This document shows positions 33,243 to 57,029 of a stretch of DNA of 64,000 nt, piece after piece. Made by a program: the position numbers and the translations under genes. The first letter of the stretch is position 1. Each line of letters starts with the position of its first letter. The notes beneath the pieces were generated by a model. The model searched no databases. It was not told where the DNA came from and saw only the letters and a list, made by a program, of their open reading frames with translations. Source of the stretch: Clostridiales bacterium (GTDB taxonomy: Bacteria > Bacillota > Clostridia > Monoglobales > JAIRYP01); contig JAIRYP010000011.1 of assembly GCA_031267755.1 (NCBI GenBank), forward strand, positions 128,761 to 192,760, written 5' to 3'.

Positions 33243-35444
33243 CTATTTTTGATTAGAATGATCGAAAGTCTTTTCTTTCTTTTCAACCTGTTTTTCAAAA
33301 TCTTCAGACGATTGAAAAGTTGAATGTTCTGTAACTTTTTCTCGATCTTGCACCGCAGTGGAACTTTCACTTCTTGAATGGAAAGGTGGTAAATGTTTTA
33401 GGGGATAAAAATCCTCATTTCCTTTTAATTTTATTGGTTTCTCAAAAACAGCATCTGGATATCTACAGTGATTATAGTATGGAGCAAGAAAAAATATATG
33501 CAATAAACCGCTTCTAAAAAATAAATAAATAGCTTGAAAAAAAATATATATTTTGCTTCTTTTAAGCCCATCGCGTTCAAGTATTTTAATCATAGCCTTA
33601 ACTTTTATTTTCTTTTTTTCCTTTGAATCTAACACTTCATGTAAGGACCGCTTGCCCTCTTCACTTAATTTAATTTTTTCAGCTTTGAGTAACGCTAACA
33701 AAAAAAGCAACTGTTCCTCATAAGCGTTTAAACGTCGAGTCGTCATATATTTTTTTTCCGCAAAATCATTCAAACGTTTATTAAAAGAATCTTTTTCTTC
33801 TTCTACTTTGCCTTCTACTTCTTTACCTTCTTCGTTTTCTTCTTCTACTTCTTTTTCTTCTTCTACTTCTTCTACTTCTTTACCTTCTTCGTTTTCTTCT
33901 TCTACTTCTTTTTCTTCTTCTACTTCTTCTACTTCTTTACCTTCTTCGTTTTCTTCTTCTACTTCTTTTTCTTCTTCTACTTCTTTTTCCTCTTTTTCTT
34001 CTTTTTCTTTTTGAAGAATCCTCTCATAAAATTTCTCAACATTTTGATCGAAATTTGAATAATCCAATAGATGTATATTATAACCATATTCATCCATATA
34101 AAAAGATACTTTTTCTTTAAAATCTGATAATTGTTTCAATAATCCAGGTTCTCGATCTCCACTTTTTTTAAACTTTTCAACTATTTTATAAACTTTTGGG
34201 CTTCCAAAAAACGCAAAATTTAAAATAATTCTTTCTCTAAAATTTAATTTTTTTTCTATAGTTAAATCAACAGAAAATCCAAAAGGAAGCCACATATTTC
34301 CATTTTGCCACAAACCTACAATACAAGCCTCTTTAAGCGCTTGTTTAAAATAAATATGTTTAAATTCTCTTTTAGAACAAATATTAAACTTCCTAATTAA
34401 CATCTGAACAAATTCCGAAGGCTTTTTATTTTTTTCACAAAAATCAGTTAAAGTGAGTGCTGGAACTAAAACAAGAGCACCTAAATCTTGAGAAGAACAA
34501 GAATCACTTTCAAGAGGTTCAATACAATCAAGTAAACGTAAAACTCGATTATCAAAGACCTCATTAAACTCTATTGTTTCAGTACAATTTGGAATTGCAA
34601 AATAACCTAAAAAAAAGAAAAAGAAAATTTTACTTGCATCATTAAAAGAACTAACTCGACCTAAAACATTTTGTGAAAAACCTAATTTCTCTAAATCATA
34701 AAAATTTTCATTACCAACTCCGCCACAAATAATTGATTGATGCAAAATATATAAAATATCATTTTTCAATTCTGGAGTTAAACTAGACATTGGCGTAATT
34801 TGTTTTTTTAAATCTTCAAAACTTTTTGACAAATTAATAGGAAAACTCATACAAGTCTGCAAAGATTGTTTATGATTTGAAATGCGACAATGCCGAATTC
34901 TAAAAATTTTAGTTATTGCAGCATAATTATATTTGTCAATATAATCAAAACTACTAAAATACTCAATAAAACGTTCAAAATATTTTAAACCTAAACCTTC
35001 GCGCTCATCAAAACAACGAGATTCAAAAATAATATTTTCCACATTGCTCAATAATTCTTCTTTTTGACTTGGATTCAAAGAATTATAATTCAGTCCACTA
35101 GTTAAAATAATTAAGGTACAAACAAATTTAATAAACCTATCTGGTTCTGTTGTAAATAAAATAACAGATTTACAAAATCTTTCTTCTTTAAATAATTCTA
35201 AAATAATGATTTTTAAAACTTCACTATTCTCGACAAATGGATATCCATAATTTTGTGAAATAAAACTAGAAATTTCTTCTAAAATATTCCAAAATTTTTC
35301 TATGTTAGAATCAGAAATATAATATTCTTTTGGTGGTTTATTAAAATCAACACCCACAAATGAATCATTTACTATTTCTCTTACTTCATTAATCTCATCT
35401 TGAAATTTACTACCTGATTCGCTAATAAGTTCAATTAAATTCAT
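33243..35444 (-). CDS. hypothetical protein with acidic tandem repeat; divergent fourth member of family C
   Basis: 733-aa ORF. Its C-terminal block EEQLLFLLALLKAEKIKLSEEGKRSLHEVL parallels LTFSLVALAFLLAYPSDKIILNREYKSLDAF (member 3) and IEIIGLSIFIAYLPDEKISRRDSKNIHDLL (member 1). An acidic linker sits at the same relative position. Confidence 0.65.
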   Translation of the reverse strand: MNLIELISESGSKFQDEINEVREIVNDSFVGVDFNKPPKEYYISDSNIEKFWNILEEISSFISQNYGYPFVENSEVLKIIILELFKEERFCKSVILFTTEPDRFIKFVCTLIILTSGLNYNSLNPSQKEELLSNVENIIFESRCFDEREGLGLKYFERFIEYFSSFDYIDKYNYAAITKIFRIRHCRISNHKQSLQTCMSFPINLSKSFEDLKKQITPMSSLTPELKNDILYILHQSIICGGVGNENFYDLEKLGFSQNVLGRVSSFNDASKIFFFFFLGYFAIPNCTETIEFNEVFDNRVLRLLDCIEPLESDSCSSQDLGALVLVPALTLTDFCEKNKKPSEFVQMLIRKFNICSKREFKHIYFKQALKEACIVGLWQNGNMWLPFGFSVDLTIEKKLNFRERIILNFAFFGSPKVYKIVEKFKKSGDREPGLLKQLSDFKEKVSFYMDEYGYNIHLLDYSNFDQNVEKFYERILQKEKEEKEEKEVEEEKEVEEENEEGKEVEEVEEEKEVEEENEEGKEVEEVEEEKEVEEENEEGKEVEGKVEEEKDSFNKRLNDFAEKKYMTTRRLNAYEEQLLFLLALLKAEKIKLSEEGKRSLHEVLDSKEKKKIKVKAMIKILERDGLKRSKIYIFFQAIYLFFRSGLLHIFFLAPYYNHCRYPDAVFEKPIKLKGNEDFYPLKHLPPFHSRSESSTAVQDREKVTEHSTFQSSEDFEKQVEKKEKTFDHSNQK
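33811..33981 (-). repeat. 3 x 57-bp in-frame tandem repeat encoding (EEEKEVEEENEEGKEVEEV)3
   Basis: By direct comparison, units 33868-33924 and 33925-33981 are identical. Unit 33811-33867 differs only at its first base. The period of 57 bp equals 19 codons. Confidence 0.9.
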
Positions 35445-35683
35445 TCTCTAAGATTCCTTTGCTTAAAACAAATATGAATATTAAAACAATTATTATTATG
35501 TAGAAAAAATAAAATAATTAAAAGTATTTATTGAATTATTTTTGCTCAAAAAATCTAAATTAATGAATAAATAATTGAATTTTTTACCACACTATTACTG
35601 TAAATTAAGTCTTAGAAACTTAAATTTATATTTGTTTAAAAATTCAAATGTTAGTTTAAAACGAACGTAAGGGGATGATTAAT

Positions 35684-36229
35684 ATGAAAGCCACGGGAAT
35701 AGTGCGAAAAATTGACAATTTAGGTAGAGTTGTAATACCCAAAGAAATTAGATCAACAATGAAAATACGCGAAGGTGATCCACTCGAAATATATACAGAT
35801 AGAAATAATGAGGTAATATTTAAAAAATATTCATTGATCGGTGAGCTTGGAATCTTTGCCGAGCAATATACCGAAAGTTTAGCAAAAGTTTCGCAATTTC
35901 CAGTTTGCATAAGCGACAGAGATGTTTTAATTGCTTGCAATGGAATTTCAAACAAAAATCTGATAATAGGCAAAAGAATTTCCAAAGAAATTGAAGATTA
36001 TATAGAAACAAAAACTTTATCTATAATAAAAAAAGAAGAAAAAGTTCCGCTTTTACTTGAAGACAATCAAAAATATAAAATTGCGGCAATTGCTTCAATA
36101 ATTTTCGAAAATGAACCAATTGGATCAGTACTACTTCTTGAAAACTCAAAAAACAAAAAAGATGTTGAAGAATCAGATATGAAACTTATTGAGGTTGCTT
36201 CAATTTTTCTATCAAAGGTCGCAAATTAA
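35684..36229 (+). CDS. spoVT: stage V sporulation protein T (AbrB-type DNA-binding domain plus GAF-like domain)
   Basis: MKATGIVRKIDNLGRVVIPKEIRSTMKIREGDPLEIY is the SpoVT/AbrB swapped-hairpin domain. The length of about 181 aa fits SpoVT rather than AbrB. The ATG at 35684 is better spaced from AAGGGG than the track's ATG at 35675. Confidence 0.85.
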   Translation: MKATGIVRKIDNLGRVVIPKEIRSTMKIREGDPLEIYTDRNNEVIFKKYSLIGELGIFAEQYTESLAKVSQFPVCISDRDVLIACNGISNKNLIIGKRISKEIEDYIETKTLSIIKKEEKVPLLLEDNQKYKIAAIASIIFENEPIGSVLLLENSKNKKDVEESDMKLIEVASIFLSKVAN

Positions 36230-36357: not shown

Positions 36358-37617
36358 TTATTTCCCCGGAACAGTTGCTTTTTTAGGAGCAGGGGCTTTA
36401 GCTTTAGGAGGCATTGCATTAGGCGGCGTAATCGGGGTAGATTGACGATATAATTCTACTTCGTTTTCTTGTTTTTGAGTTATTGCATCCTTAGCATGAA
36501 TAACTAAATCACTAATTTTTTCTTCGTCAATGTGTGGCAAGTTTGCATCCACATGCTTTTTTGCAAGAAATTCAAGTGCGCTGTGATCGCCATTTTTTGC
36601 TTTTTCCATATTAATTTGTATTTCTTTCAATTTTGCTTCTAATTCTTTTAATCTTTTCGAACAAGTATCTGCGCAAATGTCAAGCTCGTCTTTAATTATT
36701 TTGGTAAGATTACGAAAATCTTCTATTGATTTTTCATACATTTTTTTAACGAGTTCTTTCCTAAAATCTTTCGAAGAATCAGGAAAAGCGTTTTTAACTA
36801 ACCGTCCTAAATTCTTCTCCAATTCGTGAGACGTTTCAATCAATTGATTATAAAACTTTTCTCCTAGCTTACCTAAAGATTTAAAATATCTCAAAACCTT
36901 TATAATTTCTGTTGAAACAACACTTAACTCTTTACCTCCTCTTTTTAATTTTTCAACATATTCTATTGCCTTATCAATAGCTTCATCAAATGACACCGTT
37001 TTTTCTGACGACATTTTATCTGATGCTAATTCAACTGGCAATGATTCGTTCGCTGAGAATGAGTCAAGCGTTAGTTTCTCTGGCGAAGAAATTTTGGAGG
37101 ATGAATCGAGCATTGGTTTTTCTGATGAAAAATCATTCGATAAATCGGGCGAAATTGTAAACGATGAAGTTTCTAAAACTGGTAAAGTTCCTGAGCCTTC
37201 AGGGTCTTTATAATCTTCTGGCTCTGAAATTGTTAAATTGGGATTCGACGCCTCAGTGGTTTCTGTTTGACTAGTTTTAACTACTCCTAATGCATCATTC
37301 TCTGGTAATTTTTCTAAATTTTCTTCTTTAATTTTTGTAGCATCAATTTCTTTTACTTTTTCTCTCTCTTGATTTATTTTCTTTTTTATTTTTTCAAATT
37401 TACTGTAATTTTCGAAAAATAAAAAATCTTTTTCAAAAGAATGCAAAATCAATAAAATAATCAAAATAGGTGTAAAAAACAAACAAATAATAAATTGAAA
37501 TATCATTTTGTAAAAAATTTTATTTTGCTGTTTGATTAATTCTTTTATGTTTTCGGTATCATCAGAATGTTTTTCAATCTTTTTAAAATCAATCATGTTT
37601 TTCACCACCTGAAACAA
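36358..37617 (-). CDS. hypothetical single-pass membrane coiled-coil protein, KKATV[PH]GK-tail family (type A, copy 1)
   Basis: 419 aa. The N-terminus KKIEKHSDDTENIKELIKQQNKIFYKMIFQFIICLFFTPILIILLIL is near-collinear with 40233-41417. A Ser/Glu/Pro-rich linker is followed by a helical C-domain ending PPNAMPPKAKAPAPKKATVPGK. Confidence 0.75.
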   Translation of the reverse strand: MFQVVKNMIDFKKIEKHSDDTENIKELIKQQNKIFYKMIFQFIICLFFTPILIILLILHSFEKDFLFFENYSKFEKIKKKINQEREKVKEIDATKIKEENLEKLPENDALGVVKTSQTETTEASNPNLTISEPEDYKDPEGSGTLPVLETSSFTISPDLSNDFSSEKPMLDSSSKISSPEKLTLDSFSANESLPVELASDKMSSEKTVSFDEAIDKAIEYVEKLKRGGKELSVVSTEIIKVLRYFKSLGKLGEKFYNQLIETSHELEKNLGRLVKNAFPDSSKDFRKELVKKMYEKSIEDFRNLTKIIKDELDICADTCSKRLKELEAKLKEIQINMEKAKNGDHSALEFLAKKHVDANLPHIDEEKISDLVIHAKDAITQKQENEVELYRQSTPITPPNAMPPKAKAPAPKKATVPGK

Positions 37618-37711: not shown

Positions 37712-38911
37712 TTATTTTCCGTGTACAGTTGCTTTTTTGGGCGCAGGGACTTCAGCTTTAGGAGGCATTGCATTAGGCGGCAACATTGCAGCCGCTTGCT
37801 TAGGTGGGATTGGGTGATATATTGCTTCTTGAGTATCTATTTTCTTTTTTAAATCGGCTTCTACTTGACTGACAAATTTATTAGCGCTATCTACAAAATG
37901 CTGTTTTAGCGAAGTTAAGGTCGCGTCTGAAATTTCTGGGCAAGGAATCGGCTTCGCTTGAGCAATAAAAGAAGTTGCTTCTTCATCGCCTCCAACAGCT
38001 TCAACGAGTTTTTTGCCTATAAGTTCATCCTGAGCCTGCTTTTCTTCTAAATATTTTGTTAATGGCACTTGTGCTTTTTTATATGTATCTGTCATCGAAT
38101 CAAAAATTGAAGTAAGACCTCCAACTAAATTACTATTATTTTCTACAATCAATCCAGTCTTAACTGTCTCAGGCAAAGGAGCCTCTGTTATCAATTTTGA
38201 AGTTTTAACGCCGCCTTCTTGTAATACATGTTTTACATCATCTAAAGTTCCTCCATACCAAACATCTAATTTTCCCGAACTTGATACTCCCTTACTTCCT
38301 TCGTTAGAACTTCCCTTTTGAAAAATTCCAAAAAAATGTTTTGCATTGTTTGCATTTGTCTGTATGCGCTGTTGCTCATCAACTTCACGCTTTCGTTCAA
38401 CAGCCTTACATTTCTCTTTAATACCTTCTAACAACCCTTTATATCTCTGCCACCCTTTTCTAAATCTTTCTAATTCTGCAATTTCTCCATCCAATCTTGA
38501 TCTTTCATCTTCAGCATTACTTTTCTGTACAGCACGCGAAATACCTCCACCGATAGCACCAGCCAACAAACCAATGCCTGCACCAACTGCTGTTCCTACT
38601 AAAGGAATTGGAAAACTTGTACCAATTGCAGCACCAACACCTGCTCCTGTGGCTGCCCCAGCACCTGCACCAGCAACACCTCCTGCTACAGGTCTTGTTA
38701 CATTTCCCTTGATTATCCCGTCTTGGTCTTCTACCAAAACCCTAAAATCTCTTATACACTCTTCGATTTTCGTAATTAAAGCACTAGCACTCTCTAAATG
38801 TCTTTCCAACTCATCTTCTGTAAAACCTCGCGCAGTGTATTCACCAACAATTTCACCTGATCCCACTTCTCTTTTCATACGCTCCATTTCGTCTCGCGCA
38901 GTTGCTGCCAT
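37712..38911 (-). CDS. hypothetical glycine-zipper membrane protein, KKATV[PH]GK-tail family (type B, intact copy)
   Basis: 399 aa with the Gly/Ala zipper segment AGGVAGAGAGAATGAGVGAAIGTSFPIPLVGTAVGAGIGLLAGAIGGGI, followed by coiled coil. The C-terminus is PPNAMPPKAEVPAPKKATVHGK. Its DNA is much GC-richer than its neighbours: my counts are 60/130 for 38781-38910 and 62/120 for 38581-38700, against 25/120 for 39181-39300. Confidence 0.8.
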   Translation of the reverse strand: MAATARDEMERMKREVGSGEIVGEYTARGFTEDELERHLESASALITKIEECIRDFRVLVEDQDGIIKGNVTRPVAGGVAGAGAGAATGAGVGAAIGTSFPIPLVGTAVGAGIGLLAGAIGGGISRAVQKSNAEDERSRLDGEIAELERFRKGWQRYKGLLEGIKEKCKAVERKREVDEQQRIQTNANNAKHFFGIFQKGSSNEGSKGVSSSGKLDVWYGGTLDDVKHVLQEGGVKTSKLITEAPLPETVKTGLIVENNSNLVGGLTSIFDSMTDTYKKAQVPLTKYLEEKQAQDELIGKKLVEAVGGDEEATSFIAQAKPIPCPEISDATLTSLKQHFVDSANKFVSQVEADLKKKIDTQEAIYHPIPPKQAAAMLPPNAMPPKAEVPAPKKATVHGK

Positions 38912-40232: not shown

Positions 40233-41417
40233 TTATTTTCCGTGTACAGTTGCTTTTTTAACTGGAGTTTCAGAAGACATTGATTCAAAAAAAGGCATAG
40301 CTGGTTTTGCAGTTGAAAACCTTTTACGGTATTCCTCCACCCGGGCTTTTTGATTTTGAATTATTGAGTCTATCAAATTGTTAATTAAGCTATATAATTT
40401 TTCCTCATCGATTTCCGAAAATAAAAAAGGCGCTTCCACATGTTCTTCGGCAAGAAATGCTAACGCTTTTTCATCGCCCTCTTTTGCTTTTTGCATATTG
40501 ACTAAAATTATTTTTGATTCATTTTCTAATCTCGCCATTCTCTCTGCACACATACCCTCAAGAGCTCCAATATCATGACCAATTGTTATATAAAAATTAC
40601 GCACTTGTATTTCCGTTTCAATAAAAATTTCTTCAAAAATCTCTTTTATGGAATCTTTTGAAATATTAGGAAAAGTCACATTAAGTAATACTTTTAAATT
40701 TGCTTTTAAATGATGCAGTTTACCAAAAGTTTGGTAAATAAAATTATAGTACAGTTTAGATATAGATTTAGAAAGCTTACGATTTTTTTCAATTTCCTCT
40801 AAAATACCATCGCTTTTTTTGATTTTTGCTTCTGTTTTTTCTTTTCTAATACTCTCTGCAACTTTGTCGAATACTCCATCTAATAACGCTAATTTTTCCT
40901 GTTCGAACTGTTCCGACAAAACGAACGAAATATCTGGGGTTCTTAAATCTTTTGATTCTTGTGAATTTAAAACTGGTGATTCAAGGTTTGATGATTCAGA
41001 ATTATCAACACTTTCAGGCTGCTCTGTATTTAAAGATGGTGATTCAAGGTTTGATGATTCAGAACTTTTTATTTTTTTAATTTCTGTTGAATTTAATGGT
41101 TCACTATCTTTCAATTTTTCTATTCTTTGTCTTTCAAATTTCTCAAAATCTATTTCCTTTATTTTTTTTCTCTCTAAATTTATTTGTTCCTTTATTTCTT
41201 CTAATTCTTTGCACGTTTTAAAAAACAAATAATCTTTTTCAAAAAAATGCAATAATAAAAAAATTATGAAAACAGGAATAAAAAATAAACAAATTATAAA
41301 TTGAAATATCATTTTATAAAACGGTTTGTTTTGTTGCCTAATTAAATCTTTTATAAATTCTGTATCATTCGATTGTTCTTCGATTCTTTTAAAATTAACC
41401 ATAACTTCTATCGCCAA
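40233..41417 (-). CDS. hypothetical single-pass membrane coiled-coil protein, KKATV[PH]GK-tail family (type A, copy 2)
   Basis: 394 aa. The N-terminus FKRIEEQSNDTEFIKDLIRQQNKPFYKMIFQFIICLFFIPVFIIFLLL is paralogous to 36358-37617. The C-domain block MQKAKEGDEKALAFLAEEHVEA ... ends VKKATVHGK. Confidence 0.75.
   Translation of the reverse strand: MAIEVMVNFKRIEEQSNDTEFIKDLIRQQNKPFYKMIFQFIICLFFIPVFIIFLLLHFFEKDYLFFKTCKELEEIKEQINLERKKIKEIDFEKFERQRIEKLKDSEPLNSTEIKKIKSSESSNLESPSLNTEQPESVDNSESSNLESPVLNSQESKDLRTPDISFVLSEQFEQEKLALLDGVFDKVAESIRKEKTEAKIKKSDGILEEIEKNRKLSKSISKLYYNFIYQTFGKLHHLKANLKVLLNVTFPNISKDSIKEIFEEIFIETEIQVRNFYITIGHDIGALEGMCAERMARLENESKIILVNMQKAKEGDEKALAFLAEEHVEAPFLFSEIDEEKLYSLINNLIDSIIQNQKARVEEYRKRFSTAKPAMPFFESMSSETPVKKATVHGK
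40975..41064 (-). repeat. 63-bp-period coding repeat (SESSNLESP[SV]LN x2) in the linker of 40233-41417
   Basis: The exact 27-nt string GGTGATTCAAGGTTTGATGATTCAGAA occurs at 40975-41001 and 41038-41064, with similar flanks. Confidence 0.8.
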
Positions 41418-41491: not shown

Positions 41492-42659
41492 CTATTTTCC
41501 AGGTACAGTTGCTTTTTTAGAAACTGGGGTTTTAAGAGGTGTTACAGTAAGTGGTGATGTGTCTGCTTGCGTAAACGGAGTTGGTTGATATTGCAACCTG
41601 AAAGCTTCCACGGCAGCCTTTTGTCTCTGAATTATAATATCCTTAACGTGACTAATCAAATCGTTAATTTTTGCCTCATCAATTTGCGGTAAATTTGCTT
41701 TCAAATGTTTTTTTAGCAAAAATGCAGAAGCAGATTCATCACCTTCACTAGCTTTAACCATATTAAGTTGTATTTCTTTTAATTCAATTTCCAGCTCTTT
41801 CATTCTTTCCAAACGAGTACCAATACAAATTTCAAATTCCTCTTTAATTTTTATGTAACAATCGCGAATATCTTCTTTTGACTTTTTAAATACATTTTTA
41901 ACAAGTTTTTTTCTAAAAACCTTTGGAAAATCTGGAAAAGTATTTTTAACTAATTCTTTCAAACTGCTTTTCAATTCATCTTTCATATCATCAATCTGAT
42001 CAGAAAGTTTATCTCTAAATGTTTGCAATTTATCTATGTGTTCTCTATTTTCGTTATGTTCTTCAATGGCCTCTTGTTTCTTCGCCCCGCCATTTTTCAA
42101 ATCAGTTTCTAATTGTTTAACTTTTAATTCTAAAACCACACAGTCTTCTAATTCTTTTTGCTTCGCTGGTGATTTGTCAGGTACTTTACGATGATCCATT
42201 TCTGTTTTTATCTTTGTAATAAAAACCTTCCAGAATTGATTTCTCGAACATATAATGCGGAATTATCTCAGCTTCAAGTCTTGTTTTTTCTTCCGTTAAA
42301 CTTTTGTTTTCAAGTTCACTCGCCGCTTTTCCAAACACATAACCAAAAATAGTGCCTATAATAGGAATAATAGAACCAACTATCGCATAAGCAAGTGGCG
42401 ACGAATTTGAATCTTCCAACATTTTTGTTATCTAGTTATTTCTTTGTTCACAATGAACTAACCCTCTTTCACGAAATTCGATACGATTTTCAGAATCAAC
42501 CCAATATTCCTTCAACTGTTGATTGTTTAAATCAACGATTTCTTCTGGCACAATAAACGATTCTCCCGCACGTTCTTTTCTATTTTCCTTTAGAACATGA
42601 AATTCTTCGCTTAATTTAAAAATTTCACTAGAAGTTTTTGTCGCAGACATCGATACCAT
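41492..42659 (-). pseudogene. disrupted type-B KKATV[PH]GK-tail gene (three collinear ORFs: 42432-42659, 42186-42422, 41492-42199)
   Basis: The ORFs together span 1168 nt, against 1200 nt for intact 37712-38911, with the same order of parts. The N-domain RKERAGESFIVPEE parallels MKREVGSGEIVGEY. The TM segment is AYAIVGSIIPIIGTIFGYVFG. Coiled coil and the tail KKATVPGK follow. ORF1 and ORF2 are in the same frame, separated by a TAG at 42432-42434. ORF2 and ORF3 differ by one frame at the A5 run at 42221-42225. Removing one base there gives LEGFITKIKTEMDHRKV, matching LEGIKEKCKAVERKREV in the intact copy. Confidence 0.55.
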
Positions 42660-44126: not shown

Positions 44127-44780
44127 TCATTTTTGTAAATCTCTTTTAATATTATTAATATCATCATTTATTTCTTTATATTGCCTTAAATTCTTCTCAG
44201 CGTGATCTTCAAGTTCTCGTATCTGAGTACGTTCAAAAACTTCTTCATCAAAAATGAATCTAGCTCTACGATTTCTCCTATCTTCTTCTTCACTCAAAAT
44301 ACGTTGTTGTTCTACACGTCGAGCTTCTTGTAAAAATGAAAAAAGTTCAATACTACGTACTTTAAACTCTGCTTCTGTCACTAATTCCTTTACTCTATTC
44401 ACTAAAAATTTTTTACCATACAAAATATTACTTAAAATTAGTTTGTCACTCGCTGCAATTTCTTCTTTAAGAGAATCGGAAAAAGGTTTTTTACTTTCAT
44501 ACCTTATTTTCTCTTCTTCTAATTGTCTTTCAAGTTCTTCTATTATAGGTCTTGAAGCAAAATCTACCAACATACTAAAACTTTGTAATATTCCGTAACA
44601 ATTTCGTGCTTCAACAATATCAATATCATTTTCAAAATTCGCAAACGCAACAACATTTCCATCAGGCCCAATTCCTTGTCTATCTCCAGAAAACAACCTC
44701 AAATGAGCTGCTTCCGCATTTTCAACTGTTTGTTCATCCATATCTAAAATTCTATAACATTGAAAAAATATACCATTCAT
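44127..44780 (-). CDS. hypothetical protein, family A ([FY]F.CYRILDMD N-terminus), copy 1
   Basis: 217 aa. MNGIFFQCYRILDMDEQTVENAEAAHLRLFSG aligns with MVFFDCYRILDMDSEKVRAASEAYERLCQRV from 44858-45511. The two also share EEEDRRNRRARFIFDEE versus EEEDRINRRSRLSYDEE. It has no TM segment or signal peptide and a coiled-coil C-half. Confidence 0.7.
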   Translation of the reverse strand: MNGIFFQCYRILDMDEQTVENAEAAHLRLFSGDRQGIGPDGNVVAFANFENDIDIVEARNCYGILQSFSMLVDFASRPIIEELERQLEEEKIRYESKKPFSDSLKEEIAASDKLILSNILYGKKFLVNRVKELVTEAEFKVRSIELFSFLQEARRVEQQRILSEEEDRRNRRARFIFDEEVFERTQIRELEDHAEKNLRQYKEINDDINNIKRDLQK

Positions 44781-44857
44781 CGTTTAACCAATCCCTTCTT
44801 ATTACAAAAAATATTTTATAAATTTAAAATAATTATAATATTTATTTTTACTCAATT

Positions 44858-45511
44858 TTACTTATTTTTAAAATTATTAATATCTTGACTTAATTTTTTT
44901 TGAAGACGTAAAATTCTTTCTGAAGGAGTTTCAAACATTTTTATTTCTTTTTCTACAAGAAACTCTTCGTCATAACTAAGTCTACTTCTACGATTTATTC
45001 TATCTTCTTCTTCTCTCAAAATACTCTCTTGTTCTAAACGTTGAGCTTCTCTAGTATCATGAATAAGTTGAATAAAAGTTAATCTATTTTCCGCCTCTCG
45101 TAATTTTTCTTCTACGTCTCTAACAATAGATTTAACATTACACAAAAGATTAAGTGAAAGATAGTAATCACTTTCTGCACGCCTTTTTAAAATGGGATCT
45201 GAAAAAGTTTTACCTTCAAAACTTTGTTTTGCTAATTCCAATTCTTGTTCACGTTGTAATATTAAAGGAGCTGAGGCCATTACTACATCTGCATAAAAAT
45301 TCCGCAATGATCCAAAAATACCCCTAGCAGTATTAAGATCAATTTGATTAAAAGCTTCAGGAAAAAACTCTGGAAAAACTTCAAACTGTGTAGGATTTTC
45401 AACAGTTCCAATCGCATGAACGCGTTGACACAATCTCTCATAAGCTTCACTTGCTGCTCTGACTTTTTCTGAATCCATATCTAAAATTCTATAACAATCG
45501 AAAAAAACCAT
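44858..45511 (-). CDS. hypothetical protein, family A, copy 2
   Basis: 217 aa, collinear with 44127-44780 over its full length, with a GAGGAG RBS upstream. Confidence 0.7.
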   Translation of the reverse strand: MVFFDCYRILDMDSEKVRAASEAYERLCQRVHAIGTVENPTQFEVFPEFFPEAFNQIDLNTARGIFGSLRNFYADVVMASAPLILQREQELELAKQSFEGKTFSDPILKRRAESDYYLSLNLLCNVKSIVRDVEEKLREAENRLTFIQLIHDTREAQRLEQESILREEEDRINRRSRLSYDEEFLVEKEIKMFETPSERILRLQKKLSQDINNFKNK

Positions 45512-45558
45512 ATTTAATCTCTCCTCTTTTTTTAATATAAAAAATATTCTACAAACTT

Positions 45559-45588
45559 ATTATAACACAATAACTTGAAAAAAATCAA
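45559..45588 (-). promoter_or_regulatory. sigma-A-type promoter candidate with extended -10 upstream of 44858-45511
   Basis: Read on the minus strand: TTGATT (45583-45588), an 18-nt spacer, then TGTTATAAT with TATAAT at 45559-45564. That is about 45 nt upstream of the start codon. The same leader sequence recurs upstream of the gene remnant at about 46585-46655. Confidence 0.35.
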
Positions 45589-45667
45589 ACATTTTAAATT
45601 TTTACGCCAAACAATGAAATCTCCACACATCATATATTTCTCATAATTATTATTGTTTACTCAATCT

Positions 45668-46249
45668 TCATTTGCCTAACTGTAATTTAAGATTTTCAAT
45701 ATCTTTATTTAAACTTGTTAATAAATGTGAAGCTCTTTCGTTGAGTCCTTCAAATTCTTTTATATTGCCTACAAAAAAATGCTCATCATAAACATCAACA
45801 ATAATTCTTTCATTTTCCGTATTTTCCCGAACTGTTACAAAAAAATTTACATCTTGATGAAATTCATCATTAATTTGACTAACCATCAATTCAAATTGCG
45901 CTAATTGCAAAACTTGCTTAATGATATCAATACACAAATCAATATTAAGTAAATTAAGTTCTATAGATATTCTATCTTCAGAATCTATATCTGTTCCCTC
46001 TAAATCAGTCTGAAGCTGTTCAGACATAGCTATTGATGTTGAAAATACTAAATTTCCGAAATCTTCTAATGTTTGGCAACAACGTTCCGCAGTAGCCACA
46101 TCAACTCCAACTATAGCATGATCTACAAAAAAACTTCCATCATTGTCTATTGAAACTCTACCACTACATAATGTTCGAAAAGCTTCATCAGCTCTTTCAA
46201 TCGTCTCCAAATCTAAATTCAACTTATCATGAAAATAAATAAAATTCAC
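45668..46249 (-). CDS. hypothetical protein, family A, divergent copy 3
   Basis: 193 aa. MNFIYFHDKLNLDLETIERADEAFRTLCSG aligns with the N-termini of the other two copies. The C-terminal NKDIENLKLQLGK parallels DINNIKRDLQK. It lacks the RRNRR block. Confidence 0.65.
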   Translation of the reverse strand: MNFIYFHDKLNLDLETIERADEAFRTLCSGRVSIDNDGSFFVDHAIVGVDVATAERCCQTLEDFGNLVFSTSIAMSEQLQTDLEGTDIDSEDRISIELNLLNIDLCIDIIKQVLQLAQFELMVSQINDEFHQDVNFFVTVRENTENERIIVDVYDEHFFVGNIKEFEGLNERASHLLTSLNKDIENLKLQLGK

Positions 46250-46388
46250 CTATATCCCACTCCTTTTTAATATAAAAAATATTTATAAACGTAAAAAATT
46301 GAAAAAATAAAATTATTTATCCATTATCTTAAATTTCACACGTTTAAAATAATCATGCTGTTCCTCTTGTTTTTTCTAAACGATACTG

Positions 46389-46523
46389 TTAACTTAAAAT
46401 CCTTTCAATATTATTAATATCATCACTTAATTTTCTATGTAACGCTAAATTTCTCATAAAAAGATCTTAGAGTTTTCGTATATGAACCTCTTCAATAAAT
46501 CCTTCGTCATATTGAAAATCATT
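46389..46523 (-). pseudogene. 5'-deleted remnant of a fourth family A gene
   Basis: The minus-strand translation DFQYDEGFIEEVHIRKL*DLFMRNLALHRKLSDDINNIERILS* aligns with FIFDEEVFERTQIRELEDHAEKNLRQYKEINDDINNIKRDLQK* of 44127-44780. An in-frame TAA (plus-strand TTA at 46467-46469) replaces a Glu codon. The 3' flank (46346-46388) also matches the flank of 44127-44780. Confidence 0.7.
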
Positions 46524-46863
46524 AATAAATATTAATTAAAACATATTTTAAATAATAATCTAAAATTGCAAAAATTTTCTTTTTATCTCACTCCTTTGTA
46601 AACTAAAAAATATTTTCAAGTATTTTCATAACACATAAATTTAAAAAATACAATAATTACTGAAAACTTTTGAAGAATTAAACAATTTTTCTCTCATCAA
46701 TCTAATGGTTTAAAATTACTGATTAAAATTAATAAATATTTACAAAACTTATTATTTACATTTTTTATAAAAAATATTAAATAATTTTAAATTTTGTAAA
46801 TAAAATTAATCAAACTTAAAAAAATAAAATTCTCAAAATTTAAAATTAACTTTTTGAAGAATT

Positions 46864-51425: not shown

Positions 51426-52184
51426 TTAATCATCAAAATTAACAAAACTTAAAAATTTTTTCGTTCTTTCTTCTTTTGGATTTTGAAATATACTATCTGG
51501 CGAACCTTCTTCAATTATGCGTCCACCATCCATAAATAATATACGATTTGCAACATCTCGTGCAAATCTCATCTCATGAGTTACTATAATAATAGTCATA
51601 CTAGAAAGAGCAAGTTCTTTTATAACCTCCAAAACTTCTACAACCATTTCAGGATCAAGAGCACTTGTCGGTTCATCAAAAAGCATAACTCCAGGATTCA
51701 TCGCAAGCGCCCTAGCAATTGCAACACGCTGCTGCTGACCGCCCGAAAGCTGTTTAGGATAGCTATCTGCTTTATCAGCAAGCCCAACTCTTTTCAAAAG
51801 CTCATAAGCTTTACTTTCAGCCTCTTCTTTAGACATAATTTTTAAATCTACTGGCGCAAGCATTATATTTTTTTTCACTGTAATATGAGGAAACAAATTG
51901 AATTGTTGGAAAACCATTCCAATATTTCTTCGCAATTTATCAATATTTTTGTCTTTTTTAAGCTCATTTTTATCAATAAAAACTTCACCACTATCTGGCT
52001 GTTCAAGTAAATTTAAACATCTTAAAAAAGTAGATTTTCCAGATCCAGACGGACCTATAATACCAACTACTTCTCCCTCAGTAACATCAAGACTAATTCC
52101 CTTTAAAATTTTCAAATCCCCAAAACTTTTATATAAATTTTTAACACTGACTTTTATTAACACGATTATAATTCCTTTCCGCAA
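51426..52184 (-). CDS. polar amino acid ABC transporter ATP-binding protein (GlnQ-like)
   Basis: Walker [10 protein letters not shown], signature [15 protein letters not shown] and Walker [12 protein letters not shown]. The track start is a TTG that overlaps the permease gene. A GTG at 52163 ([15 protein letters not shown]) is a likelier start. Confidence 0.9.
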
Positions 52185-52836
52185 CCATCGAAATCTGAGT
52201 TAAAATAGTTACAATGATTAAATAAAAAATCGCAACAACCGTCCAAGTAGAAAACGATTCCATCGTCCTACCAATATAAATTTTTGCCTCATAAATAATT
52301 TCTCCAAGACTTATCACTGAAACAATTGATGTATCTTTTAAACTTATTATAAACTGATTTACAAGTGAAGGAATTGAAATTCTTATTGCTTGAGGAAGAA
52401 CAACTCGTATCAAAGAGCGCCACTTTGAAAACCCAAGACTACGAGCCGCCTCCGTTTGACCAACATCGACCGCCAAAACTCCTCCACGAAAAATTTCCGA
52501 AATGTATGCGCCCGCATTAAGCCCAAGTGTAATAATTGAAGCAGTAAAAACTGATATCCTAAAGTTTATTCCAAAATGTTGAATAAGCTGTGGAATAGCA
52601 AAATAAATATAAAATACCTGAACTATAAGTGGAGTTCCACGTATTATCCAAACATAAACATCAGACAAAAAAGAAAAAATTTTAATACACGATAAATGTG
52701 CTAAGCATGATAATAAACCCAAAAATATTGCAATAATAAGAGCTATAAAAGTTGTTTGCATCGTAATACCAAAACCCTTCAATAAAAAAGGAAAAGCTTC
52801 ATTCAAAACTTTAATTATATTCATAAACTTCTCCAA
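52141..52836 (-). CDS. polar amino acid ABC transporter permease
   Basis: 231 aa, multi-TM, with the EAA loop [24 protein letters not shown]. The start may be the internal Met at 52824. Confidence 0.88.
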
Positions 52837-53608
52837 ACCTTTTTACATATTTATTTATAATTCGTTCATATTCCCCGTTTTGAATGATGTTATCAAGACC
52901 ATTATTAAACATATTTAAAAGCTCCTGATTTTTCTCCTTAAGCACTACAAAACCATAACAAAATTCGGAATTAGAACTTAAAACAATTTTAAGTCCATTA
53001 TTCTGTGAAATTCCATATTCAAGAACTGTTTGATCTTCAAAACACGCAACAGAATTTCCAGTTTTTATCTCATCATACATAATAGGAGTTTCATCAAAAT
53101 AATTTGTCGTAAATCCAATCTTATCTTTCAACGATTCAGCAAATAATGCAGCCTGAGTTCCGGTTTTAAGAGCAATCTTTTTTCCCCTTAAATCTTCAAA
53201 AGTTTTTATCCCATTTTCTTCTTTTTTTACTGCAACGCAAACATTCGTTTTATAATAACCCTTAGAAAAATCATACTTAATTCTTCTTTCATCAGTTATT
53301 ATTACACCAGCCATCATTCCATCCGCTTGGCTTGACTCAAGCGCAGTAATCGCACTATTAAAACCAAGGCCTTTAAATTTATATTTAAATTTTTGATCCT
53401 TTGCTATCTCTTCGAAAATCTCAATGTCAATTCCCACATCTTTACCCTTGGCATTTTTAAACTCGAAAGGCGCATAATCAATATCTGTTGCAATTACAAA
53501 TATCTTTTCTCTTGTGTTAACGTTTTCGCATCCTGCGAACAATAACGCTACTCCACAAAACAAAATTGCAAGATGCAATTTTATTTTTATTTTTCCCAAA
53601 CTTAACAC
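52811..53608 (-). CDS. polar amino acid ABC transporter substrate-binding lipoprotein
   Basis: 265 aa with the lipobox LLFAGC and a family-3 SBP pattern (DYAPFEF, GLGFNSAITALESSQADGMMAGV). Confidence 0.85.
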   Translation of the reverse strand: MLSLGKIKIKLHLAILFCGVALLFAGCENVNTREKIFVIATDIDYAPFEFKNAKGKDVGIDIEIFEEIAKDQKFKYKFKGLGFNSAITALESSQADGMMAGVIITDERRIKYDFSKGYYKTNVCVAVKKEENGIKTFEDLRGKKIALKTGTQAALFAESLKDKIGFTTNYFDETPIMYDEIKTGNSVACFEDQTVLEYGISQNNGLKIVLSSNSEFCYGFVVLKEKNQELLNMFNNGLDNIIQNGEYERIINKYVKRFGEVYEYN

Positions 53609-53659
53609 CTCAAAAACACATAAAATAATATTTTAGATATCAAAATTTCAAAAACAATA

Positions 53660-54484
53660 TTAATAAACTCCAACTACATTATCTGCCTCTACTAAATCTC
53701 CATAAATTGGATACAAGGTTTTTTCGTAATCTTCATAAAAAAATTTTTCTTCTCTAAGTTTTTTTATTTCATCGTCCAACCAACTTAATAGATCGTGATC
53801 GCTTTTTCTTACAGCTGGAGCGATAAAACTTTCGCTTCCAAATGAGTCAACAGAAACCGAAAAATCATCATTCCCATTAACCCATGCGTATAGTATGGTG
53901 TTATCGTGTGACATTGCATCCCCTCTTCCATTGGCTAAAGCATTAAAGGCTTCAGTATTTTGATCAAATTTTAAAAGTTTTATTTCCGGGTGATTTGTTG
54001 CAAAAAATACTTCGGCTGTTGTACCTTTATTTACAATCAATGTTTTTCCATTTAATTCTTCAATATTTGAAATTGGAAATTTTTTTGGAGAAGCAATGCC
54101 TAAACGAACTTTCATATATGGTTTACTAAAATTAACAACCTTTTCTCTATCTTTAGTAATTGTAAAATTGGCAAGAGTTACATCAACCTTTCCGGACAAA
54201 AGATAACTAACGCGATTTGCAGCTTCCATTGGTACAAACTCAAGTTTACTTTCATCGCCCAATAAGTCTTTAGCAATTCTTTTAGCCAAAAAAACATCAT
54301 ACCCTTGATTTTCACCATTCGTATCAATATAACCAAAAGGAAACTTATCTATAAAAACTCCGATCTTAATTTTACCACGTTCTTTTATTTCATCTAACAA
54401 ATTTTTCTCTGAACTGCAGCCAAAAATTGTTAGACCTAATAAAATAGCAGCGCAAAATAAAAATATTTTCTTAAACTTTTTCAT
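53660..54484 (-). CDS. polar amino acid ABC transporter substrate-binding lipoprotein (second system)
   Basis: 274 aa with the lipobox LTIFGC and a family-3 SBP pattern (FPFGYID, GKVDVTLANFTIT.DR). Confidence 0.85.
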   Translation of the reverse strand: MKKFKKIFLFCAAILLGLTIFGCSSEKNLLDEIKERGKIKIGVFIDKFPFGYIDTNGENQGYDVFLAKRIAKDLLGDESKLEFVPMEAANRVSYLLSGKVDVTLANFTITKDREKVVNFSKPYMKVRLGIASPKKFPISNIEELNGKTLIVNKGTTAEVFFATNHPEIKLLKFDQNTEAFNALANGRGDAMSHDNTILYAWVNGNDDFSVSVDSFGSESFIAPAVRKSDHDLLSWLDDEIKKLREEKFFYEDYEKTLYPIYGDLVEADNVVGVY

Positions 54485-54678
54485 AAAATTACTCCTTTAT
54501 TATTCTTCAAAATATTTAATAAAATCAAAAATAAATCTTCTTCATTATTTAAAATTTTTATTTTACGTAAATAATTTGTTCTCTTTCATAAAAAATCTTT
54601 TTAAAATTATGTATCCAAAAAATATAAACCATATCTTCATCATGTCAATAACTTTAAAATTATAATCTTTAAAATTTT

Positions 54679-55452
54679 TTAATCTGACTTTTCATTTTTA
54701 TGAGATTTAAATTCGAAAATATCCAAAAATCTTTTTGCTTTTTCAGTCTCAGGATTATTAAAAAAATTTGAATTATTTTCTAAAATTTCTCCATCATCCA
54801 AAAATAAAACACGATCATTTATAGCTTTTGCAAACGGCATTTCATGAGTCACAATAATCATTGTGGTACCCTTTTCAGCAAGTTCAAAAATAAGTTCCAA
54901 AACCTCTCTGCTCATTTCAGGATCAAGTGAAGCTGTAACTTCATCAAACAAAAGTATTTCAGGTTCCATAATAAGCGCTCTAGCTATTGCAACTCTTTGT
55001 TTCTGGCCGCCAGACAACTGATGAGGAAAAAAATCACCTCGATTCAATAAACCAACACGCTCCAAGAGTTTCCTTGAATTTTCAAGTACTTCACTTTTGT
55101 TTTTTTTCTGAACTAAAATAGGACCTAAACTAATATTTTCAAAAACATTCATGTGCGGAAATAAATCATAATTCTGAAAAACCATTCCAATTTTTTGACG
55201 CACAAGCTCCCATTTTGTTTTAGAAGTTGTAATAACCTCGCCATTAAATTTAATTGTTCCTGATTCAATGTTTTCAAAACCATTTATACATCTTAAGATT
55301 GTGCTTTTTCCTGAACCGCTTGGTCCTAAAATAACTAAAACTTCACCTTTGTGAATATCAAAAGATATATTCTTAAGTATATGCAACCCATTAAAACTTT
55401 TATGCAAATTAAAAATCTCTAATATAATTTTTTTACACATTAAAAATCTCAC
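54679..55452 (-). CDS. polar amino acid ABC transporter ATP-binding protein (second system)
   Basis: 257 aa with [24 protein letters not shown] and LLFDEVTASLD. Confidence 0.9.
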   Translation of the reverse strand: MRFLMCKKIILEIFNLHKSFNGLHILKNISFDIHKGEVLVILGPSGSGKSTILRCINGFENIESGTIKFNGEVITTSKTKWELVRQKIGMVFQNYDLFPHMNVFENISLGPILVQKKNKSEVLENSRKLLERVGLLNRGDFFPHQLSGGQKQRVAIARALIMEPEILLFDEVTASLDPEMSREVLELIFELAEKGTTMIIVTHEMPFAKAINDRVLFLDDGEILENNSNFFNNPETEKAKRFLDIFEFKSHKNEKSD

Positions 55453-55529
55453 TTCTTAACTTCTTTTATATTAAACATATGCCATAGATAATAAAAACAT
55501 TTTTAAATTATTTTCAAAAAATTCTAAAA

Positions 55530-56213
55530 TTAAATTTTAAACTTATTTTCAAAAAATTTTGCAAAACAAGACACTGTTTGACATGCTACAAAAAAAAGAG
55601 CAAATATAAATCCATATACAAAAAATGGTGCTTTTGGATTTTTAAATACATTGTATTCTATAATCTGTTGACCAACTTTCAAAACCTCTATAACACCAAT
55701 CAAAGTAACAATAGAAGTTGTTTTTATCATTCTAACAATTAAATTAATTGCATTTGGTAAAACCATTCTCATAATCTGAGGCATTATTATTTTTTTATAC
55801 AATTGTTTGTATGTAAAACCAATTGCGAGCCCGCTTTCATACTGATGTTTTGGCAACGCTTCCATACTGCTGAGTATAATATCAGAAAATTCAAAAGTTC
55901 CCCAAACGAAAAACACTATAATTGACACCGCCGTACCACTTAATCCTCCGTTTTTACCTGAAAGTTTAAAATAAAATAAAAAGAGCCAGGCAAAAATCGG
56001 AATTATTCTAACAATTTCGAGAAAAATTTTAAAAACAATGCGAAATATCTTTCTTTTAGAAACTATAAAACCAAACAAAATACCAAAAAATATGGATAAA
56101 AGAACAGAAACCAAAGATATATACAAATTAACACAAAATGCCCTAAGCAATCTTTTAAACCCTACGGCTTCTTGAACAAAAAAATCCAAAACTCCAATAC
56201 TTAAAATATTCAC
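55530..56213 (-). CDS. polar amino acid ABC transporter permease (second system)
   Basis: 227 aa, multi-TM, with the EAA-like loop QYESGLAIGFTYKQLYKKIIMPQ. Confidence 0.85.
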   Translation of the reverse strand: MNILSIGVLDFFVQEAVGFKRLLRAFCVNLYISLVSVLLSIFFGILFGFIVSKRKIFRIVFKIFLEIVRIIPIFAWLFLFYFKLSGKNGGLSGTAVSIIVFFVWGTFEFSDIILSSMEALPKHQYESGLAIGFTYKQLYKKIIMPQIMRMVLPNAINLIVRMIKTTSIVTLIGVIEVLKVGQQIIEYNVFKNPKAPFFVYGFIFALFFVACQTVSCFAKFFENKFKI

Positions 56214-56324
56214 ATTCTTTCTTGCCTCCCAAAAAATTATACTAGAAAAACAAAAAATATTTATAATTTAAATAATTAATATTTCCTCTGTAAACAAAAA
56301 TTATATGATTTTAATTTCAAATAA

Positions 56325-57029
56325 TCAAAATAAAATTTTATTATCTATGTATTTAATTTTTTCTTTCAAAAACGTAAACAACAAAACAAATGGCAAAATA
56401 ATTACAACATACGAAACAATAAGCATAAACAACGCTTCATTTGTACAATAATACATGCCAATTACATCTTTTGTTACAAACATGACATCAGCAAGTGCCA
56501 CAATACCTGCAACACTTGTCTCTTTAATTAAAAACACAATAACTCCAGCTATAAGCGGCATCGACAATACAATTGCTTGAGGCAAAATAATGTGGCAAAT
56601 TAATTGCCAATTGTTGAGACCAATGCTCAATCCAGATTCAATTTGAGTTTTTTTAATGGAATCAAACCCACCCTTAACGGCCTCACACATATAACTTCCA
56701 CCCAAAAACGAAAGACCAAACAACGCACAATTAAACGAACTAAGGCGCACCCCAAATAATGGTAAACTAAAATAAAGAAAAAATAATTGAATTGTAAGAG
56801 GTGTATTTCTTGAAATCTCTACATAAAATTTAATAATCCATGAAACTATTGGAATCTTCATATAACTTATTGCACTACAAACTATTCCCAAAAACAATGA
56901 AATCATAATAGCGCACAAAGAAAGTTTTAAAGTTAAAAAAATCGATTCTTTGTAAATGGGAATAAGTTTCATAATCAAAACAAAATCCATAAAAACCACC
57001 ACAAAAAACATAAAATTTAAATTAATCAA
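56325..57029 (-). CDS. polar amino acid ABC transporter permease (second system)
   Basis: 234 aa, multi-TM, with the EAA-like loop QIESGLSIGLNNWQLICHIILPQA. Confidence 0.85.
   Translation of the reverse strand: MINLNFMFFVVVFMDFVLIMKLIPIYKESIFLTLKLSLCAIMISLFLGIVCSAISYMKIPIVSWIIKFYVEISRNTPLTIQLFFLYFSLPLFGVRLSSFNCALFGLSFLGGSYMCEAVKGGFDSIKKTQIESGLSIGLNNWQLICHIILPQAIVLSMPLIAGVIVFLIKETSVAGIVALADVMFVTKDVIGMYYCTNEALFMLIVSYVVIILPFVLLFTFLKEKIKYIDNKILF

Follow-up and report, generated by a model that had tools for sequence, protein, structure and literature searches.

What kind of locus is formed by three consecutive, mutually similar genes of no recognisable family, placed among the housekeeping genes of a clostridial genome, and what could their products do? 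The genes lie on the minus strand between positions 44127 and 46249 of a 64,000-nucleotide stretch of contig JAIRYP010000011.1 (Clostridiales bacterium, assembly GCA_031267755.1), which as a whole is called the window here. They had been singled out by a reading of the DNA made without database searches, the sequence-only reading, as a triplet of uncharacterised paralogs next to ychF, and are named A, B and C in the following. Our answer has two parts. A, B and C are a real tandem array of paralogous genes, which arose by repeated local duplication and whose family was detected in this one genome only in the collections searched. As for their function, which we infer, the explanation we favour, with a probability of about 45%, is that of a lineage-specific family under birth-and-death evolution, whose products would be oligomerising helical proteins with a scaffold or effector-like role at the envelope or the host interface. 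Most of this overall confidence rests on the descriptive part, and no toxin/immunity pair is favoured.

The three intact genes

Genes A (44127..44780) and B (44858..45511) start with ATG and encode 217 amino acids each, whereas gene C (45668..46249) starts with GTG and encodes 193, as defined by their open reading frames (ORFs) and translations. The array is placed between gatD/murT and ychF and is transcribed in the order C, B, A, which makes A (NCBI MDR1391958.1, locus LBJ09_02050) its promoter-distal member. The lengths, the strand and the N-termini given by the sequence-only reading were all found in the ORFs, and the paralogy that it proposed is borne out by pairwise identities of 26-40%: A and B share 40% identity over 216 amino acids (E 6e-39), A and C, which are collinear, 26% (E 2e-8), and B and C 27% (E 4e-7). 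An all-against-all BLAST comparison of the window's ORFs, covering all those with 60 or more amino acids, revealed no further intact paralog. A and B have in common the FF.CYRILDMD N-terminus, the basic block EEEDR.NRR.R...DEE, which starts at residue 164 in A and at residue 167 in B, and the DINN.K C-terminus. C is the most divergent paralog, lacking both the basic block and some 15 residues at the turn of the predicted helical hairpin. A motif scan located the block in the first two proteins and the C-terminal motif in all three, as had been proposed, the latter in the form DI.N.K (DINNIK, DINNFK and DIENLK).

Several features mark these ORFs as genuine genes. At the composition of the window, the stop probability per codon is 0.083, and a frame of 217 codons would stay open by chance with a probability of about 7e-9. 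The guanine-plus-cytosine (GC) content of the triplet equals that of the genome, and its values at the three codon positions follow the order GC1>GC2>GC3 (0.48/0.28/0.14), matching those of ychF. An AGGAG-type ribosome-binding site (RBS) precedes each of the three starts, including a strong GAGGAG 8-9 nt 5' of the ATG of B and an AGGAG 5' of the GTG of C. The sequence-only reading had also remarked on an elevated GC content at 44241-44360; the count of 40/120 is numerically right, but the remark carries no meaning, as 25% of the 120-nt segments of this sequence reach that value.

Public records (MDR1391959.1 and MDR1391960.1) differ in their start codons: NCBI calls C with 180 amino acids instead of 193, and the Joint Genome Institute (JGI) calls B with 206 instead of 217. 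These shorter calls cut off the conserved N-terminal motif. The long forms of both proteins are favoured because of the position of the RBS and the conservation of the extra residues across the paralogs.

Duplication and decay of the array

The history of the array is documented by a decayed fourth unit, pseudogene D (46389..46586, minus strand), identified by tblastn, frame-0 translation and the DNA repeat families D1-D3 and D5. Together with its leader, the whole decayed unit covers about 46389-46615, inside the 600 bp that separate C from gatD. Around 13 N-terminal codons are collinear with A in one frame, with the ATG start changed to ATA and the Tyr9 codon from TAT to TAG. The same frame keeps the C-terminal 41 codons or so (FQYDEGFIEEVHIRKL*DLFMRNLALHRKLSDDINNIERILS*, asterisks marking stops), and by tblastn residues 175-215 of A match 46517-46395 with 44% identity over 41 amino acids (E 2e-4), including an in-frame stop. 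Since both remnants lie in one frame, approximately 150 internal codons have been deleted.

The similarity between the units extends upstream of the coding sequences. At 46563-46615, the start region of C is matched together with its leader and RBS (repeat family D5), and the leader and RBS of the pseudogene (AAATATTTTTTAGTTTACAAAGGAGTGAG, 46587..46615, minus strand) belong to this repeat family, which is 74% identical to the leader and start region of C. The corresponding minus-strand elements of the intact genes are found at 46250..46284 for C (AAATATTTTTTATATTAAAAAGGAGTGGG, repeat family D5), at 45512..45588 for B (repeat families D6/D7), and at 44781..44816 for A (AAATATTTTTTGTAATAAGAAGGGATTGG, repeat family D5), the last one inside the 77-nt spacer between B and A. 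All four units share a leader of the form AATATTTTTT[A/G]-TAWT-AAGGAG. The segment preceding B also holds a promoter candidate, the best predicted sigma-70-like promoter of the region (TTGATT-18 nt-TATAAT with a TG extension, 45588->45559), and a terminator scan of the region found no intrinsic terminators. The array thus arose by repeated local duplication of a unit of approximately 720-820 bp consisting of leader, RBS and ORF. This unit has been duplicated at least three times and one copy is already dead, which amounts to birth-and-death evolution.

Distribution of the family

The family proved to be restricted to this genome. A word-indexed search with A against 5.8 billion clusters returned only the protein itself, annotated as a hypothetical protein of this metagenome-assembled genome (MAG) and encoded on a contig of 257,603 bp. 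In an exhaustive hidden Markov model (HMM) search of 1.84 billion representatives, the profile built from the three sequences retrieved a single further protein besides A, B and C. This additional match, P0004 (1139 amino acids, E 2.5e-8, eight matching stretches), is a many-repeat V/A-ATPase proteolipid and not a homologue, and it was rejected because its score comes from a hydrophobic stretch of about 38 residues amplified by its eight repeats. Nothing beyond noise was obtained for the triplet in Pfam, NCBIfam, PADLOC, PHROGs or the PDB sequences, and no family member was present in JGI metagenome contigs, in IMG/VR, in the phage and plasmid records searched by tblastn, or in 86 related loci (1.45 Mb) that were translated in six frames and searched with an unfiltered HMM. 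The genome of the window was itself absent from what the genome and metagenome scans and an exact-protein look-up retrieved. Together with the structural searches described below, which gave no significant match either, these results uphold the uncharacterised status that had been assigned to the triplet.

A foreign origin of the array was considered and rejected. A phage or plasmid source is not indicated by PHROGs, IMG/VR or the tblastn searches of phage and plasmid records, all of them empty, or by a Foldseek search of BFVD, where all matches had E values of 0.14 or higher. A mobile element is not indicated by the composition of the array, which is that of the genome, or by its flanks, formed by gatD/murT on one side and ychF on the other.

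Predicted structure of the products

The three products are soluble, acidic proteins predicted to be all-helical, with isoelectric points (pI) between 4.25 (C) and 5.2 and a value of 4.9 for A. As the sequence-only reading had anticipated, they lack transmembrane segments: the maximum Kyte-Doolittle mean over 19 residues is 0.92-1.30, compared with 2.99 in a control from the neighbouring KKATV[PH]GK family of membrane proteins, and no signal peptide is found. AlphaFold2 models of A, built with the three-sequence alignment, reached a mean predicted local distance difference test (pLDDT) score of 83 and a predicted template modelling (pTM) score of 0.62 for the full-length protein, and of 84.5 and 0.75, respectively, for residues 1-150. 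The model contains four helices (3-12, 16-29, 55-96 and 103-216), the first two of which bear the conserved [FY]F.CYRILDMD..A..A...L motif. They are followed by a variable, aromatic-rich loop (residues 30-54) of low confidence, weakly modelled as a beta-hairpin. The N-terminal 150 residues or so are modelled as a helical bundle, in which helix 55-96, of 42 residues, forms a hairpin with the first part of the last helix. The latter begins after a short turn and reaches the invariant DIxNxK end. Given that only about 45 of its residues are able to pair with helix 55-96, around 65 residues should protrude, and judging from the helix lengths alone this protruding part is predicted to take in both the basic block and the DIxNxK end.

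The earlier description of the products as helical or coiled-coil proteins holds in its first half, since the models are all-helical; support for coiled coils is modest. A hydrophobic periodicity near 3.5, over the tail and the last helix, beats that of shuffled sequences for two of the proteins (A, p 0.03; B, p 0.01-0.05), whereas for C it does not.

Foldseek searches with the full model of A and with its 1-150 bundle gave no significant match. Among the top matches, ClyA-type toxins (E at least 0.23, template modelling (TM) score 0.14-0.45, root-mean-square deviation (rmsd) up to 25 A) are mixed with designed bundles, SMC/Rad50 proteins and BAR domains. Among known proteins, the architecture is reminiscent of PspA/IM30/ESCRT-III, likewise soluble, acidic, all-helical proteins of around 220 amino acids, in which a short N-terminal helix precedes a long hairpin and the second helix of the hairpin is the longer one. 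These proteins oligomerise through their helices, as those of the triplet are proposed to do. However, PspA lacks two elements that the triplet has ahead of the hairpin, namely a loop of 25 residues and a second short helix. Membership was rejected, with no match to PF04012 even at E<=1 and with the best ESCRT-III structure (9ftl_A) at E 1.4 and a TM score of 0.41.

Two other candidates were discarded. The N-terminal YRILDMD...A..A..RL resembles the DYYEILGV...IKKAYRKL of J-domains (DnaJ/Hsp40), and hhalign aligns precisely those residues when the family is compared with the J-domain of Escherichia coli DnaJ, but with a probability of 1% over 25 columns; A, B and C have no HPD motif, and PF00226 gives no match at E<=1. 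WXG100/type VII substrates are not matched in Pfam and measure about 100 amino acids, against 193-217 here; the triplet has no W.G motif, and no gene of a type VII secretion system (T7SS) was found among the annotated ORFs of the window.

The host organism

The remainder of the window, with a GC content of 28%, is largely devoted to housekeeping: sigA, dnaG, ligA, alaS, infC, lgt, pyr genes, secA, ychF, metG, pnp, two sets of amino-acid ABC transporter genes, and murT/gatD, the peptidoglycan-amidation genes that adjoin the array. It also encodes a full-length ATP/ADP (NTP/NDP) transporter of the TLC family (57127-58680, minus strand; PF03219, E 6e-151). The nearest homologues of this translocase outside this genome are 55-61% identical and belong to MAGs of Oscillospiraceae/Clostridia, followed by those of Holosporales with 47%. 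Its synteny is unlike that of the relatives examined: here the neighbours are amino-acid ABC transporters and pnp, whereas in relatives the order is rplM-rpsI-rpsU-HAD-TLC.

Directly beside the translocase stand two consecutive, paralogous polar-amino-acid ABC transporter sets (51426-57029, minus strand), which together with it make up an import-function cluster. Their ATPases are 50% identical, their permeases 25-31%, and their putative solute-binding proteins 25%, with one SBP_bac_3 match.

Intracellular energy-parasitic Clostridia were first described in 2023, when the "small genome clade" of Acutalibacteraceae was reported to consist of obligately intracellular energy parasites of termite-gut protists, the members being Ca. 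Improbicoccus and Ca. Paraimprobicoccus (Takahashi et al. 2023, PMC10579323). Their genomes measure 1.0-1.3 Mb, with 27.5-33% GC and 94-248 pseudogenes, and encode an ATP/ADP translocase and genome-specific candidate effectors; endospores are visible by transmission electron microscopy (PMC10579323). The organism studied here shares with them the low GC content of a member of the Clostridia, the translocase, sporulation genes and a pseudogene, and the genome-restricted families of the window are reminiscent of the gene-set differences between the genomes of that clade, which have been proposed to act on the protist host (PMC10579323). The translocase probably marks the organism as an energy parasite like Ca. 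Improbicoccus (PMC10579323). Its presence in one genome with SpoIID (4903-5922, plus strand) and SpoVT (35675-36229, plus strand), both annotated in the window, suggests a spore-forming, host-dependent bacterium. Membership in the small genome clade itself is less certain: the best ychF relatives among the GTDB genomes, from MAGs of Oscillospiraceae/Clostridia, are only 62% identical, and another termite-gut study mentions UBA1242, a separate clostridial order with small genomes, which would be an alternative placement. The window also still encodes pyrimidine biosynthesis genes.

Possible roles of the array

Within the explanation that we favour, the products of A, B and C would most likely be homo- or hetero-oligomeric coiled-coil rods, given that the bare amphipathic helix of 65 residues in the model needs a partner. 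The conserved bundle would act as a binding head, whereas the variable loop and the basic block may tune its specificity. By analogy, their role would most likely be that of lineage-specific scaffolds or effector-like proteins at the envelope of the parasite or at its interface with the host, a placement suggested by the host-dependent lifestyle and by the abundance of tandem orphan families. The genome features counted here are the ATP/ADP translocase, the 28% GC, the sporulation genes and the several tandem orphan families.

A number of observations weigh against this explanation. The family is represented by one genome only, and the ratio of nonsynonymous to synonymous substitutions (dN/dS) between paralogs, 0.75-1.0 by the Nei-Gojobori method, does not demonstrate purifying selection, although this ratio is uninformative because of saturation and an extreme AT bias (GC at third positions about 0.14). 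High pLDDT values for long helices, obtained with an alignment of three sequences, are weak evidence of a specific tertiary fold, and the helical periodicity of C does not rise above that of the shuffled sequences. Membership of the MAG in the small genome clade is suggested by its translocase and composition. Whereas about half of the candidate effectors of that clade have Sec signals (PMC10579323), A, B and C have none, and secretion is unsupported because neither a signal peptide nor a recognisable export route was found for them. The candidate effectors of the clade also carry eukaryote-like domains, such as Rab GTPases and Ser/Thr kinases among others (PMC10579323), whereas the triplet has no recognisable domain and no eukaryotic homologue.

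The same proteins could be internal structural components, that is, spore-coat, forespore or cell-envelope morphogenetic coiled coils with no direct role at the host. Proteins of this sort are typically lineage-specific and fast-evolving, and acidic, helical products that are rod-like in the models and have neither signal peptide nor transmembrane segment would suit such a role, as would the presence of SpoIID and SpoVT in the window and of murT/gatD next to the array. Endospores are, moreover, a feature of the related clade (PMC10579323). Nevertheless, no known coat, DivIVA/GpsB or PspA family resembles the triplet, a search of the region identified no promoter of the sporulation type, and in a ychF scan of GTDB genomes no locus from the relatives examined had murT/gatD beside ychF; we consider this explanation rather doubtful. 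A more sceptical interpretation takes the genes for expendable, nearly neutral ORFs without current function, which the eroding genome would be about to lose. Of the four units one has already become a pseudogene, related genomes hold 94-248 of them (PMC10579323), no homologues exist in the searched collections, and the paralog dN/dS of about 0.75-1.0 would be in line with this. What makes this unlikely is that three frames of 193-217 codons, each with the chance probability of about 7e-9 given above, have stayed open despite an amino-acid divergence of approximately 60-74%, which implies long-term selection against stops, and that RBS, leader and the motifs at both termini are conserved in proteins with a coherent, confidently predicted fold.

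The sequence-only reading had likened, by its own account as a conjecture, the triplet and the KKATV[PH]GK family, which lies across ychF on the same strand as it had described, to the cargo/adaptor or immunity/effector pairs of polymorphic systems; no positive support for this analogy was obtained. Under such a scheme the triplet would supply the membrane proteins with adaptors, chaperones or immunity partners within a polymorphic effector-type module, and it is true that both families are multi-copy, genome-unique and rich in coiled coils, that each shows a decayed member, a probable one in the KKATV[PH]GK family, and that within 10 kb only ychF and small ORFs lie between them. Their co-occurrence, however, rests on this single genome. 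Yet Pfam, NCBIfam and PADLOC yielded no toxin, immunity, trafficking or defence domain above noise in either family, and among the annotated ORFs of the window there is neither a toxin gene nor a secretion apparatus (T7SS, type VI, or contact-dependent inhibition), SecA being the sole secretion component. The intervening ychF serves housekeeping and has a promoter-like site of its own, hhalign detected no relationship between the families (probability 0.2%), and neither copy number nor order is paired, with four to five KKATV[PH]GK genes, arranged as two blocks, facing three genes and one pseudogene in the array. The layout of the membrane proteins, conserved at the C-terminus and variable at the N-terminus, is the reverse of that of a polymorphic toxin, and the scheme is accordingly judged improbable. 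Even less credit, to the point of being very improbable, goes to a miniature tripartite membrane-active system directed at host vacuole membranes and similar to the ClyA superfamily (AhlABC, SmhABC, NheABC, Hbl, XaxAB, YaxAB), whose operon-like tandem sets encode two or three paralogous, elongated helical-bundle proteins. The tandem triplet of helical paralogs on one strand fits that description, AhlC, ClyA, XaxA and YaxA come up repeatedly near the top of the Foldseek results for both models, and a low-confidence, aromatic-rich beta-hairpin loop lies between helices 2 and 3. All these fold matches are non-significant, however, with the E values, TM scores and rmsd already given; no match to Pfam HBL/HlyE exists, the low maximum hydropathy leaves no room for a hydrophobic head, there is no beta-tongue, and the proteins are much shorter than the members of the superfamily, roughly half their size.

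The most far-reaching version of a host-interface role, which we regard as unlikely, would make of A, B and C a previously unknown, genome-specific, host-directed system of intracellular, spore-forming, ATP-parasitic Clostridia. They might then act on the protist vacuole or cytoskeleton, possibly together with the KKATV[PH]GK proteins, either as signal-less exported coiled-coil effectors or as a small tripartite membrane-remodelling assembly. If true, either version would define an effector fold that is new, along with a non-classical route of export in a Gram-positive endosymbiont. Comparable families are known from obligate intracellular, energy-parasitic bacteria: the Inc proteins of Chlamydia and the coiled-coil effectors of Legionella and Coxiella, all helical or coiled-coil proteins, exist in multiple copies, evolve fast and are restricted to a genus. 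They are often encoded in tandem clusters, have no homologues elsewhere, and leave the bacterium through type III or type IV secretion. Inc proteins additionally bear a bilobed hydrophobic domain. The triplet differs from them in the lack of a hydrophobic segment, and the window showed no secretion system of type III or type IV; the KKATV[PH]GK family, with its N-terminal transmembrane segment and coiled coil, would by analogy be the more Inc-like of the two.

Returning to the lineage-specific birth-and-death family as the favoured explanation, the triplet is at present one more orphan family of a poorly sampled lineage, with no demonstrated new mechanism. The family is new in having no relatives, though familiar in kind, and a specialist would not be very surprised by it, since such tandem families of orphans are often met with in host-dependent lineages that have been poorly sampled; the translocase in spore-forming Clostridia is already known for the clade (PMC10579323). 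Its value is that of a defined candidate: the coordinates are clear, the helical model is confident, and the history of duplication and decay is documented. Genome-unique, expanding tandem families are an obvious place to seek the host-interaction or the spore and envelope innovations of the lineage, and they bear on how a Gram-positive endosymbiont without type III/IV secretion deals with its protist host. The KKATV[PH]GK family and three paralogs of around 650 amino acids in the window belong to the same category.

Other orphan families in the window

The KKATV[PH]GK family has four paralogs, all on the minus strand (36358-37617, 37712-38911, 40233-41417 and 41492-42199), plus a probably split fifth member. 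They are characterised by an invariant extreme C-terminus, from which the name is taken, a conserved C-terminal helical domain of about 200 amino acids, and variable N-terminal halves, with a classical transmembrane helix in two members and a Gly/Ala-zipper transmembrane region in one. Like the triplet, the family was detected in this one genome only: it retrieved only itself in the word-indexed search and had no matches in Pfam, NCBIfam or PADLOC.

The 235-amino-acid gene at 41492-42199 resembles the 3' part of a split member. It is overlapped upstream by an ORF of 78 amino acids (42186-42422, minus strand), which contains a transmembrane helix and is collinear with residues 94-169 of the 399-amino-acid paralog (E 7e-4). 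Further upstream, an ORF of 75 amino acids (42432-42659, minus strand) shows an unconvincing match to the family. The whole region 41492-42659 may represent a split gene or a pseudogene created by a frameshift. The member at 37712-38911 has a GC content of 0.40, against 0.28 for the window, and a Gly/Ala-rich stretch (GAGAGAATGAGVGAAIG...) with weak matches to PHROG tape-measure proteins (E about 1e-6), which are probably compositional and do not reflect homology.

The second tandem orphan triplet is encoded on the plus strand (19493-21421, 21448-23343 and 23376-25499), between ligA and the pyrimidine genes, and comprises proteins of 642, 631 and 707 amino acids with no Pfam domain. Its first and third members are 28% identical (E 9e-10), and the first and second 24% over 273 amino acids (E 2e-4). 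Beside SpoVT, a further orphan of 733 amino acids (33243-35444, minus strand), with no match in Pfam or PHROGs, has a hydrophobic C-terminal segment and an internal acidic tandem repeat, EEKEVEEENEEGKEVEEV, in about three copies. An orphan of 346 amino acids is likewise found in the window, between the tandem orphan families.

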